From Bradymonadia bacterium (GTDB taxonomy: Bacteria > Myxococcota_A > Bradymonadia > UBA7976 > UBA1532): a stretch of DNA of 43,550 nt. Positions within the stretch are counted from its first letter, which is position 1. Each line of letters opens with the position of its first letter. The notes below the pieces were generated by a model that worked only from the letters and a program-made list of their open reading frames with translations, had not been told where the DNA came from and did not search any database. The translations under genes and the position numbers were made by a program. Below, in pieces: positions 29,230 through 42,083 of this stretch. The DNA lies in assembly GCA_046290225.1 (NCBI GenBank), contig JBKAGE010000014.1:1-43550 (forward strand). The letters run 5' to 3'.

Positions 29230-29901
29230 CTAGAATTCGATCACGATCGACACCCGCGACGAAGCCCCCTCGGGCAATGTGTAACGCGGCGAAGACAGCA
29301 CCCCCACCAGACACTTCCGCTGCGTTTTGCTCAAACTCTCCCCGCCAAGCATCGGCTCCAGAACGTGATCCGACGCCACCCCCGTCGAAGCGTTCACTCG
29401 GGCTGTCCACTTCAGCGCCCCCGGCGCCGAGACCCCTTCGAAACACGCCGCCAGCCTCGGGCTGCGGGCGGCCACCTGCAGGCGGAAGCGCGACAGCCAC
29501 TTTGGCGGCCCCGGCGGCTTGGTGATGTAATCCGGGCGCTCATCCGATTTGATGCGGTGCTTCTTCTTGCGCACCCGGCGGCGTGATGGCTTGGGCGGCG
29601 GCGCTGGGGTGAGCTTCACTGGGATGGGCGGCGCCACGCCTGCGCCCGCGTCGGGGCCAGGAACGGGCAGAGTCAGAGGCGCCTCGTCACAGTCGCAGCG
29701 ACTCAACAGCAGCAAAATCAGAAGCAAGAGCAGCAGCCAGAAGATGATGCGTCTTCGCCGACGGCGGCGCTCTTCGTCTCGATCTCCCACGAGGGCTCGA
29801 CGGCGGGCGACGAGTTGGGCCCGGGCCGCGTCACGACGGCGCCGCAGCTCGGCTTTCTGGCGCTTCAGCTCAGCTTTGAGGGCGCGGCGGTCCATCGGCA
29901 T
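29230..29901 (-). CDS. Bitopic membrane protein with Pro-rich linker and TonB-C/AgmX-like C-terminal domain
   Basis: Arg-rich N-terminus, poly-Leu TM, Pro-rich spacer, RLAACFE...GALKWTARV...KCLVGVL...RVSIVIEF pattern. TGATG coupling. Confidence 0.7.
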   Translation of the reverse strand: MPMDRRALKAELKRQKAELRRRRDAARAQLVARRRALVGDRDEERRRRRRRIIFWLLLLLLILLLLSRCDCDEAPLTLPVPGPDAGAGVAPPIPVKLTPAPPPKPSRRRVRKKKHRIKSDERPDYITKPPGPPKWLSRFRLQVAARSPRLAACFEGVSAPGALKWTARVNASTGVASDHVLEPMLGGESLSKTQRKCLVGVLSSPRYTLPEGASSRVSIVIEF

Positions 29902-31838
29902 CAGTCAGAGATCCGCCAGCCGAAGATCAGCGTGTTGTCGCGTTGACGCCATTCTTCGGGCTTCAGCTTGATGGGCGTGAACACCGGCGGTGACTCCACC
30001 TCGGCCACCACGAAGGGCCAGGGGAGCGTGTCCGCGGGGGCCACCCTGACTGGGCCGGCGAAGAGCGTGTGATCGGGTGACAGCGTGCCGGCGCGCTCGA
30101 GAGTGTTGGCGCCTTCCAGGCCCGTGAGGCCTTCCACGAGGGCCTGCAGCTCGCTGGAGAGCGTCTCCGCCTGACGGGCCTTCCGGCGGGCCGCACGCGC
30201 TTCGGCGGCGATGGCGTCGAGCTGACTTTTGAGTGCGCGCATCAGCGGCACATACTGCGTGCGGATCGACACCCCTTGTACTTGCAGGCGCTGTACGAAC
30301 TGCTTGAGGAACCGATAGGTGGCGTAAGGAGAGTCGGCGAGCTGGGCCTTGATCAGATCCGTCCACGCATCGCCGTCACCCTGAGAAAGCGGCCGCAGCC
30401 ACTCTACGCGATCTTTGAGGGCCCCTCGGCCCACCTGATGCTTTACGCAGCGCTCGAAAGACTCGGCGTCGGCCCCGAGGGCGGCGTGCCAGAGCTGGTC
30501 TTCGAGGACCACCGTGTAGTCGGTGCGGGGCAGCGTGCTGCGCAGCATGGCGAACAGCTCGTCGGTGACCTTGAACTGCGCAGCCACGAAGGACAGCCAG
30601 CGGCGGCCGAGGTTGCGCACCGACTCTGGGCGGCGAGAGCGCTCGGACCACTTCATCGCCAGGGCCAGCGATCTGATCGACGCGGCCATGTGGCCCCCGG
30701 CAAGGTGATCCACCCCCTGATGCAGCGCCAGGGCCCCGCGCTCGCGGAACCCCGTCTCTTCATCGAGAGAGAGCAGGCGCTCGCCGCGATCTCCGGACCA
30801 GATCAGGGCGCGGGTGGCCTCGTCACCCTCAGCGTCGAGGTGGGCGATCCAGCTCTGCACCTCGGCCCCTGCCCGGGCCTCGATGAGGGCGTCGATCACC
30901 GAGATGATGAGGGTCTCGAGGGCCGGGCGATCCTTCGAGAGGTAGATGGCCTGGGCGAAGAGGAACTGCCGACGCTCGCTGGAGAGGGTGAGCCACTCCT
31001 CGGCAGACCAGGTCAGGCTCTCGGCGAGGATCTTGCCCTCTTCAGAGTCGGGGTTGATGCCCAGGTTCGCTGGCGCTGTGGACACATCTGCTCGGGCCAG
31101 GCCAGCAGCCATGGCCTCTTGTCTCTGTTTTCGGGCCTGACGGCGGGCGGCTTTGCGGTTGAGGCCGCTCAGGGCGAGGTTGAGATCGAAGATGCGGGCC
31201 TGCACCAGGGCCCGGCCCACCACGTGATCCACGTCGAGGTGCTCCAGGCTTTGACGGAGCAGGTGGCGCATCAGGCGGCCGTTCACTCTGCGATCGTTGA
31301 TGGGCGAGAAGAGCGACTCGCTGGCGTCCCAGAGCAGCCACAGGTGCTGCCAGCACGACGCGCGGCGAAACCGGACTGTGGTCAGCTCCTCGGCGTCGAG
31401 CACGTCGTGCAATGAGACGTGGCGCATCTGGCGCCCCAGCTTGAACGCCACCCAGGGGTTGCCCGGGCTGCCCGGATCAGAGCGCCGCATGGCGTCGAGC
31501 AGCCAGTTGTGCAGCGCCAGAGGCCAGAGGCCCGCGCCGCCCTCGTCGGTGGGGAACCCGTCGGGGCAGATGCCCAGATCGCCCAGGGCCGCCCAGGTCA
31601 CCGAGCGAAAGTCCGCGTCCCGGGCGCTCACCGTGTGGGTCTGATGCTCTACGGCGTTGCGGAGCAGCCAGAGCTTGAGCACCTCTCTGGGGGCCTCTTC
31701 TCGGAGGGCCATCCGGGCGTTGTAGTGGATCACCGACTGGATGGAGGCTTTTTCGGGCGTCTGCGTTGGGGCCTGAGCTCTGCTCTCACCTGCGCAGGCC
31801 ATGAGGCTCACCGCCAACACGCTGGTACATGCCTTCAT
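29901..31838 (-). CDS. Large helical exported protein or lipoprotein, unknown function
   Basis: Long ORF in operon; signal/lipobox-like MKACTSVLAVSLMAC. Start uncertain. Confidence 0.75.
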   Translation of the reverse strand: MKACTSVLAVSLMACAGESRAQAPTQTPEKASIQSVIHYNARMALREEAPREVLKLWLLRNAVEHQTHTVSARDADFRSVTWAALGDLGICPDGFPTDEGGAGLWPLALHNWLLDAMRRSDPGSPGNPWVAFKLGRQMRHVSLHDVLDAEELTTVRFRRASCWQHLWLLWDASESLFSPINDRRVNGRLMRHLLRQSLEHLDVDHVVGRALVQARIFDLNLALSGLNRKAARRQARKQRQEAMAAGLARADVSTAPANLGINPDSEEGKILAESLTWSAEEWLTLSSERRQFLFAQAIYLSKDRPALETLIISVIDALIEARAGAEVQSWIAHLDAEGDEATRALIWSGDRGERLLSLDEETGFRERGALALHQGVDHLAGGHMAASIRSLALAMKWSERSRRPESVRNLGRRWLSFVAAQFKVTDELFAMLRSTLPRTDYTVVLEDQLWHAALGADAESFERCVKHQVGRGALKDRVEWLRPLSQGDGDAWTDLIKAQLADSPYATYRFLKQFVQRLQVQGVSIRTQYVPLMRALKSQLDAIAAEARAARRKARQAETLSSELQALVEGLTGLEGANTLERAGTLSPDHTLFAGPVRVAPADTLPWPFVVAEVESPPVFTPIKLKPEEWRQRDNTLIFGWRISD

Positions 31839-31861
31839 GAAGGCCCTCGTGCGCCGAGGAC

Positions 31862-40780: not shown

Positions 40781-41424
40781 CGAAGCCATCGCCACCGCCC
40801 GTCGAGGCATACACCGCCGTGCAGCGTGGTCTCCCGCGCATCGCGCAAGACCACGGCGAGGAGCCCGTGGTTTGATCCGAGGCTGCCGGCGGCGGCATAG
40901 CGGGTACAGGCGAGGGGGTAGGCCCGGGCGGCCTCGACGCCACCGATGACGGCGATGTCACCAGCGGCGAGGGTGGGGGTACGGTCCGAGACCTTCACGC
41001 CTTGATCGAGCAGGGCGTTCTTCACTGCGAAGCTGATCTTGTGGCTCATGCGCGGATCAGGGTGGAACGCTTCCACCATCCAGAGTCGGCCACGCTCATC
41101 CTCGGACAGGCCTGCCACGAGACCTGCCATGTCTTTCGCCGTGCTCCGCAATTCGAGCAGCAGCGCGTCGTCCCGGGGCACCCGCACACCCCTGGGCATG
41201 AGGCGCTCCCGACAGATCACTGCCCGTCGGTCGATGTAGTCGCCTCGAGCGCTCGGGGGCGGTATTCGGCCAGGTAGGGCCTGGCGCGCCGCTTCGATGG
41301 GCATGGGGGTGCAGTCGAGGGCCTGCAGGTCGACGTCGGGAGCCACCCAGCCGTCCACAGGGTCCTGGGCCCCCTCGATGAGGTTGGGCAGGTTGAACAG
41401 GATCAGGAAGATGATCGTGGTCAT
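40777..41424 (-). CDS. Exported or membrane-anchored hypothetical protein
   Basis: Hydrophobic N-terminus, four Cys; ATGA overlaps at both ends. Confidence 0.7.
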   Translation of the reverse strand: MTTIIFLILFNLPNLIEGAQDPVDGWVAPDVDLQALDCTPMPIEAARQALPGRIPPPSARGDYIDRRAVICRERLMPRGVRVPRDDALLLELRSTAKDMAGLVAGLSEDERGRLWMVEAFHPDPRMSHKISFAVKNALLDQGVKVSDRTPTLAAGDIAVIGGVEAARAYPLACTRYAAAGSLGSNHGLLAVVLRDARETTLHGGVCLDGRWRWLR

Positions 41425-42083
41425 GGCGCCCCCAGAGGTGACTCGGTCAGGACTTGCTGGCGCACCCTGGCGTTGAGCGTGAGCTGGCTGAGCAGGTGGT
41501 AGTAGTCTCTGGAGAACTGCGCCTCGGCTTCCGAGGTGAAGCCCACACGCTGCATGAACCGGCCGATGAGGCTGTCCCTCGCCAACAAGAAGCCCTGCCC
41601 ATCGCGGATCACGATGTCCTGAGCGAAGGTGTACTCATCGACGCGGGTCCAGAAGAAGAACCACGCGCTCTCTTCTTTGTGAATCATACGGGCGCTCAGC
41701 TCGATCTGCAGCCGCCCTTCATCTTTCTTTGCAGGTTGTTGCGCGGCCTCACCTTCACCCTGAGCAGGCACGACGCGATCTTCAGCCCGGATCGCTTTGA
41801 TGCGGGTGCTGGTCTGTACCGTAGCCCCCTGGTTCTCGAAGAGCCGGGCGAGCTTCTGGCAGAGCTCACGGGCCTCGCTGGTGTCGAGCACCTCGCCGGG
41901 CAGGCAGTGCAGATCGATCTCGAGGTCGGCGAAGTTGGCGTAGCCCGTGTCGATGGCGATGGGTCGATGCAGCCCCGAGACGGGCTGGTACACGGTGATG
42001 CAGCCTCCGCCTGCGAGAGCGAGCCCGATCAGGCACGTCACCATCAGGGCGATCGGGGGCAGGCGCTTTGAGGGGCTGGGCAC
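41421..42083 (-). CDS. Lipoprotein, first gene of the 12-gene operon
   Basis: Probable GTG start 42083; hydrophobic stretch ending AGGGC. Confidence 0.7.
   Translation of the reverse strand: MPSPSKRLPPIALMVTCLIGLALAGGGCITVYQPVSGLHRPIAIDTGYANFADLEIDLHCLPGEVLDTSEARELCQKLARLFENQGATVQTSTRIKAIRAEDRVVPAQGEGEAAQQPAKKDEGRLQIELSARMIHKEESAWFFFWTRVDEYTFAQDIVIRDGQGFLLARDSLIGRFMQRVGFTSEAEAQFSRDYYHLLSQLTLNARVRQQVLTESPLGAP

Follow-up and report, generated by a model that had tools for sequence, protein, structure and literature searches.

A twelve-gene envelope operon joining a MotAB stator to a FliF/FliG-like fusion protein: a candidate non-flagellar rotary machine

In flagella, the MotAB stator turns FliG rings by ion motive force, and to our knowledge MotAB is known to act on FliG in flagella only. 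The Agl-Glt gliding machinery comprises an inner-membrane ion motor, a TonB/AgmX-like arm, TPR proteins, outer-membrane barrels and a Cys-rich lipoprotein. In PMC13104615, the Agl-Glt motor is described as the TolQR-like AglRQS, the type IX secretion system (T9SS/GldLM) as a non-flagellar ion-driven rotary machine moving surface adhesins, and the surface-motility machinery of Bdellovibrio as unidentified. The closest published system is the Chlamydia FliF-FliG-M fusion, a protein of about 330 aa with RBM2 and FliG-M only that was proposed as an injectisome partner (Bergeron 2016, PMC4768692); in the main text of that article, 'MotA' does not occur. Here we describe an operon of 12 genes from a Bradymonadia bacterium, located in one whole contig of 43,550 bp (JBKAGE010000014.1, hereafter the window) of an 8.58-Mb genome that is 99.4% complete. 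We give a probability of roughly 0.55 to the reading that this operon encodes a stand-alone ion-driven rotary machine, not a flagellum, made of MotA/MotB, a FliF/FliG fusion protein (H) and nine envelope proteins. A literature search, with subscription papers and supplements outside its reach, found no description of such a system, and the searched places of PMC13277936, PMC13104615 and PMC7355467 do not mention one. The system is new relative to the described ones, though made from known motor parts.

Gene order, conservation and distribution

The region 29230-42083 of the window is filled by 12 open reading frames (ORFs), all on the minus strand, in the order A, B, C, D, E, motA, motB, H, I, J, K and L (Table 1). 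Eight of the 11 junctions overlap (-1, -4, -10 or -11 nt) and the other three are gaps of 46, 14 and 23 nt, as expected from the first-pass annotation of this DNA, which had described twelve co-oriented genes mostly joined by overlapping stop and start codons. The operon is present in one copy in the source genome, and the named relatives of the window proteins are mostly from Myxococcota. Clear families in Pfam and NCBIfam were found for motA, motB and E (TPR) only, and nine of the 12 products appear to be envelope proteins of no named family. The same annotation had noted that export-gate, rod, hook, flagellin and chemotaxis genes are missing from the window, and a family scan of 37 window proteins found none of them.

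Species-representative genomes were scanned with an alignment of H, yielding 103 relatives, and the best 80 loci were analysed. In all 80 loci the operon genes found are collinear and contiguous, and 44 loci carry all 12, with median identities to the window proteins ranging from 35% (A) to 65% (E, the best-conserved accessory gene). A rearranged, complete form was found in 5 of 5 loci examined from the phylum of a Silvanigrellaceae-labelled locus: motAB is divergently transcribed, followed by A-E, H, one extra lipoprotein, I, J, K and an L-like gene (B, K and L being assigned weakly or by position). The gene-neighbourhood survey therefore shows that the operon is conserved as a unit. In its flanks (48 loci upstream, 52 downstream), no neighbour recurs outside one 11-locus clade, and no conserved cargo, receptor, secretion or signalling gene was found.

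The distribution is patchy. The operon, detected as an H match, occurs in at least 25 of the 401 genomes of the phylum sample (a strict search, which gives a floor), in 39 of 171 genomes of the Archangium family, and in 13 of the 18 genomes of the genus Archangium, the other five giving no match. Two Archangium genomes, A. gephyra and A. lansingense, carry a second, more distant FliF/FliG and MotAB module (L082:3591-13605 and L083; the sister module below). Its order is lipoprotein, OMP_myx_plus-like barrel, large helical protein, C/D-like barrel, TPR lipoprotein, motA, motB, fusion protein, lipoprotein and AgmX-C-like protein, with an Ig-domain protein downstream of the last. The H-like protein of this module passes Pfam FliG_C, and C/D-, E- and L-like genes are present.

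Motor and envelope proteins

The operon MotA matches Pfam MotA_ExbB (E 9e-15), and its best NCBIfam matches are flagellar MotA/PomA models (1e-13), TolQ reaching only 0.03. Its profile matched 10 PDB sequences, every one a MotA or PomA. MotB matches MotB_plug and OmpA, and its Asp18 is unchanged in 76 of 76 orthologues; both the MotA call and the MotB with a conserved Asp made in the first pass are thereby confirmed. A quick IQ-TREE phylogeny (SH-aLRT support, no bootstrap) was built from 49 rows, i.e., 12 of the 73 operon MotAs, one sister-module MotA and 36 other MotA/ExbB-family proteins from six genomes. The operon MotAs form one clade on a long branch (SH-aLRT 98), which together with the other MotB-partnered MotAs is split from 29 ExbB/TolQ-type rows (SH-aLRT 100). 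In the FIT/GIT division of stators (PMC12505986), the operon MotA thus falls on the FIT side. On its rotor-facing helix, W88 and G91 are invariant, residue 93 is basic in 73 of 73 sequences (R93 in the window), residue 92 is basic in 59 of 73 and residue 101 is acidic in 66 of 73; the MotAs of five distant loci from another phylum show the same pattern. The basic 93 and acidic 101 resemble, in a register doubtful by one residue, the R90/E98 pair of MotA that pairs with FliG D289/R281 (PMC7564593). Torque-helix charges take part in stator grip (PMC11302681).

The membrane protein with FliG-like domains noticed in the first pass is H, which additionally has a FliF-like ring domain. Its AlphaFold2 (AF2) model (pLDDT 85.9) contains a single RBM and a single transmembrane helix (TM), and is not a full FliF, which has two TMs and RBM1-3 around the export gate. 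In a Foldseek search with H, the first 12 rows listed were all FliG, and the hidden Markov model of the H family scored 55 bits against the source genome's own FliG. By Foldseek and VIA, the N, M and C domains of FliG are all present in H, and none of the three is shortened in 120 homologues or in the distant clade. The ring domain is predicted to pack with itself (0.59, versus 0.00 for the control).

Compared with the flagellar motor core (FliF, FliG and MotA5B2/PomA5B2), the operon shares a FIT-type MotA, a MotB with Asp, plug and OmpA, the three FliG domains, an RBM3-like ring domain and a FliF-C-like helix ahead of FliG-N. It differs in that its FliF part and FliG form a single chain, which carries a cleavable-type signal peptide and a single TM, in that RBM1/2 and genes for export gate, rod, hook, filament, FliM/N and chemotaxis are all missing, in its replaced torque charges and EHPQ motif (see below), in its nine unrelated partners and in its occurrence in aflagellate genomes. 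The Chlamydiaceae fusion likewise combines parts of FliF and FliG naturally, and its bacterium is non-flagellated (PMC4768692), whereas in H an RBM3-like domain is combined with FliG N, M and C and a dedicated MotAB accompanies the protein. With T9SS/GldLM the likeness is a functional analogy only, that of a non-flagellar ion-driven rotary machine; GldLM is not homologous to MotAB, and no Gld/Por family, whether of the GldLM motor, the GldKN ring or the SprA translocon, rose above noise among the 12 operon proteins (NCBIfam/Pfam, with A-D, J and K compared by sequence only).

Table 1. Genes of the operon, with window coordinates.
Gene	Position	Strand	Product
A	41421..42083	-	lipoprotein, ~207-220 aa; start 42044 ATG or 42083 GTG; no named family
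B	40777..41424	-	215 aa; likely exported; four invariant Cys; no named family (Pfam, NCBIfam)
C	39575..40780	-	401 aa; signal peptide, LpoB/CsgG/TolB_N-like alpha/beta domain, predicted outer-membrane beta-barrel
D	38601..39584	-	327 aa; signal peptide, CxxC-bearing domain, Gly-patterned beta region; possible barrel
E	37907..38554	-	215-aa TPR lipoprotein
motA	37173..37892	-	239 aa; flagellar-type (FIT) stator A subunit, own clade
motB	36550..37173	-	207 aa; TM with Asp18, plug, OmpA peptidoglycan-binding domain
H	34733..36550	-	605-aa natural FliF/FliG-like fusion; signal peptide 1-19, RBM ring domain ~28-141, Pro-rich linker, one TM 206-224, FliF-C-like helices, FliG N/M/C domains ~298-605
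I	32739..34733	-	664-aa Cys-rich lipoprotein; two Ig-like domains, alpha/beta domain, long beta elements
J	31862..32749	-	295 aa; signal peptide, probable outer-membrane beta-barrel
K	29901..31838	-	645 aa; exported; putative, largely helical scaffold
L	29230..29901	-	223-aa bitopic protein; basic N-terminus, TM 52-70, Pro-rich linker, C-terminal AgmX/TonB-C-like domain

Among the accessory proteins, A, E and I each keep an invariant Cys at the lipobox position, in line with the TPR lipoprotein (E) and further lipoproteins of the first-pass annotation; in A the lipobox is GGGC, its Cys is unchanged in 49 orthologues, and no match was found in Pfam, NCBIfam or PDB. Of the three probable outer-membrane beta proteins proposed there, C is well supported as a barrel: it ends in Phe in 60 of 61 sequences, and its neighbours in Atlas features are the LpoB/CsgG/TolB_N and OMP_b-brl clusters at 0.95, which we treat as a lead. 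J is a plausible barrel by its sequence pattern and its terminal Phe (30/63) or Leu (28/63), and has no family match. The case for D is weaker, a possible barrel that ends in Pro in 51 of 54 members, across which no Pfam family was found. D is possibly a distant paralogue of C, as the two profiles match the same sister-module protein (E 9e-8 for C and 2.5e-4 for D); the direct C-D hhalign comparison is not significant. I is modelled with confidence (pLDDT 90.7) as two Ig-like domains, an alpha/beta domain and long strands, and has no specific match; I is a candidate surface or cargo subunit. K has no family or PDB match. L is bitopic as first described, and its C-terminal domain is linked to AgmX/TonB-C weakly, through a two-step bridge only: it aligns with a sister-module protein (hhalign 95.7%), which matches AgmX/PglI-C at E 0.009, below the cut-off.

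Other candidate systems were rejected. The stator pair is not of the ExbB/TolQ plus ExbD/TolR type of the Ton and Tol systems (ExbBD-TonB, TolQRA) by Pfam, NCBIfam and the tree. Zorya has a ZorA with a long cytoplasmic tail and ZorC/D/E effectors; PADLOC matches MotB alone to ZorB models and none of the other 11 proteins, and MotA has 239 aa. For the type III secretion system (T3SS), the SctRSTUV export gate, the SctN ATPase and SctJ are not in the operon (Pfam, NCBIfam). A separate T3SS locus is present in genome G443, and a myxobacterial T3SS locus (L084:7228-17815) has a weakly FliG-like ORF beside SctJ and a FliM-like SctQ.

Proposed working and alternatives

We propose that H would polymerise into an inner-membrane ring, with its ring-building domains in the periplasm and its FliG domains on the cytoplasmic side below the membrane. 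A wall-anchored MotA5B2 would conduct ions via MotB Asp18 and push the FliG-C domains of H. As FliM, FliN and a CheY site are missing, rotation of the ring would be unidirectional, and lacking RBM1/2 and an export gate, the ring would not serve type III export. The TonB/AgmX-like arm L and the adaptors E, K, A and B would transmit force to an outer-membrane barrel platform of C, D and J, which may carry or move the lipoprotein I, and the machine would most likely serve to grip surfaces or other cells for traction or to make contact with them. That the operon makes a self-contained non-flagellar envelope machine is very likely, and that the H ring and its dedicated MotAB work together is likely; true rotation is probable, and given rotation, surface traction or contact is slightly favoured over transport. 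The ion-driven trans-envelope apparatus suggested in the first pass thus gains support from the conserved unit and from its not mapping to known loci; ring packing is a prediction, and the stator-rotor contact, rotation, force path and output are what we infer.

Several points weigh against the rotary reading, above all a changed stator-rotor contact surface. The H sites aligned to FliG R281 and D288/D289 are A/S/T, A/G/S and S/N/A/T in the 120 homologues, and the FliM-binding EHPQ motif of FliG (PMC6290876) aligns to LPPR in H. Because these canonical torque charges are replaced, either the ring stands still or torque would pass through a new, private MotA-H interface, which would also keep the rotor apart from the stator of the cell's flagellum. 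Rotation and output, whether secretion, motility or prey contact, are inferred, and the expression of the operon is putative.

An unlikely alternative is that the motor energises transport, opening or cycling the C/D/J barrels via L in TonB style for cargo export or display, or for solute import. This would agree with the TonB/AgmX-like architecture of L and the clusters that C resembles. However, no cargo, receptor or secretion gene is conserved in the flanks, the barrels look small and match no plug-domain family, and TonB/TolA arms pair with ExbBD/TolQR, for which a FliG ring is unneeded. Improbable, too, is a complex that does not rotate, in which H would form a ring that serves purely as scaffold, and MotAB would act as a gated ion channel or as a mechanosensor reporting surface or cell contact from the outer-membrane parts. 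The replaced torque charges and EHPQ fit such a complex, whereas the three full-length FliG domains, the residues W88, G91, basic 93 and acidic 101 kept on the MotA helix in both clades, and the absence of a signalling gene travelling with the operon argue against it.

The operon could also be a flagellar locus, either accessory or vestigial, for a second set of stators or an outer-membrane collar that persists where flagella were lost. The source genome is flagellated, and a full flagellar system lies on its other contigs: FliG, FlhA, FliM/N and FlgI on contig C75, with eight flagellin-family matches in the genome. Flagellin is present in 53 of the 80 carriers, and in the phylum sample FlgI occurs in 20 of 25 carriers versus 167 of 401 genomes overall, kin not being independent. 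However, 147 of the 167 FlgI-positive genomes have no H match (the strict search giving a floor for H), the source genome has its own flagellar-type MotA with two MotB-type genes on contig C15, and the operon MotA forms a separate long-branch clade. Flagellin was not found in 27 of the 80 carriers, most of them metagenome-assembled genomes in which absence is uncertain. These carriers include Archangium minus and A. gephyra (complete chromosomes), A. lansingense, A. violaceum and Hyalangium versicolor; in these five, no rod or hook gene (0/5) and no canonical FliG was found, and the weak FliM-like match is a T3SS SctQ in the one examined. The full 12-gene operon is intact in 14 flagellin-negative genomes, at ~40-65% identity to the window proteins. 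The operon is independent of flagella, and the flagellar-locus explanation is very unlikely and largely refuted. The earlier wording 'no flagellum' is right for the operon itself and for many of the carriers, and wrong for the source genome. On contig C15 (L086:2611-4985), the flagellar-type motA is followed by the two motB-type genes, the first without an OmpA match.

The layout of the operon parallels that of Glt. Because of the barrel evidence for C, J and D, the fold of I and the link of L to AgmX, it echoes the Glt outer-membrane platform, L being the one component for which sequence supports the likeness. For the Glt family members (GltA/B/H barrels, GltC, GltE and GltG/J), no NCBIfam Glt model matches the window proteins or 36 orthologues, a remoter kinship being possible; the links to Glt are the weak, indirect AgmX-C link of L and a sister-module barrel that weakly matches OMP_myx_plus (E 4e-8). 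GltG was found above cut-off in one carrier (G433) and in two genomes of the same genus without an operon match (G481, G484), so Agl-Glt gliding is a separate system, and the operon genes map to neither a flagellar nor an Agl-Glt locus. A divergent Agl-Glt or Nfs spore-coat paralogue, to which the parallel arrangement of barrels, TPR lipoprotein, large helical protein, AgmX-like arm and Cys-rich lipoprotein and the sister-module matches might point, is scarcely credible, as the motor is MotAB with an OmpA domain and a predicted rotor ring, whereas AglRQS has no rotor ring and is TolQR-like (PMC13104615).

If the rotary reading is true, the operon might rank with Agl-Glt and T9SS as a third surface engine, one geared by MotAB and FliG, and might offer a living model of how a motor runs without the type III export apparatus. 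A conserved, self-contained unit that holds both halves of the gear but lacks export gate, shaft and filament would mark the torque core as a module that can be reused, which bears on whether rotor and stator in the flagellar motor arose before or after their coupling to the T3SS. We tentatively suggest that the operon represents a single branch within an unrecognised superfamily, whose members would be non-flagellar rotary machines with a flagellar rotor-stator core, in predatory myxobacteria and Bdellovibrio-like lineages, in which a spinning FliF-FliG ring would drive an outer-membrane adhesin platform. It may bear on lineages whose surface-motility machinery is unidentified, the link to Bdellovibrio itself being putative. 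The intact operon in cultured aflagellate Archangium and Hyalangium strains, and the five of 18 genus genomes without a match, offer natural comparisons.

Further loci and neighbouring genes

Two loci, L035 (A-D) and L069 (A-E), are the sole ones without the upstream genes although the contig had room, and are split or eroded operons. In a 1.8-Mb genome (single contig, 96% complete), the 12 operon genes lie in order but shattered into short fragments (L085:5600-16220) between intact flanking ORFs of 280-520 aa. The whole operon thus appears to be decaying in a genome that has undergone reduction, which would point to a role in the free-living state. Stand-alone secreted-type proteins of ~800 aa with a FliG-like C-terminal part were found in three other loci (L122:8429-10807, L123:8415-10889 and L124:9170-11599), with no motAB match within the 20 kb retrieved; in their phylum, 58 of 104 genomes give some H-like match. 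The D-E gap (window 38551-38604) holds a 17-codon mini-ORF with an ATGA overlap at each end; in 58 of 61 relatives this junction is, unlike in the window, a direct -4 overlap, and the mini-ORF looks like a local duplication.

Elsewhere in the window, positions 18637-25026 (-) encode a 2129-aa teneurin-like YD-shell/Rhs protein with TTR, FN-plug and NHL domains, and 25191-26636 (+) an archaemetzincin-type M54 protease domain fused to TPRs. A gene for an AAA_21 ATPase and a weak HNH gene at 2166-4228 (-), in a low-GC patch (47.5% at 3001-4000), resemble a Septu/retron-type defence pair. Positions 44-787 (+) encode a fibrinogen C-terminal domain protein (E 2e-42), which is unusual for bacteria.

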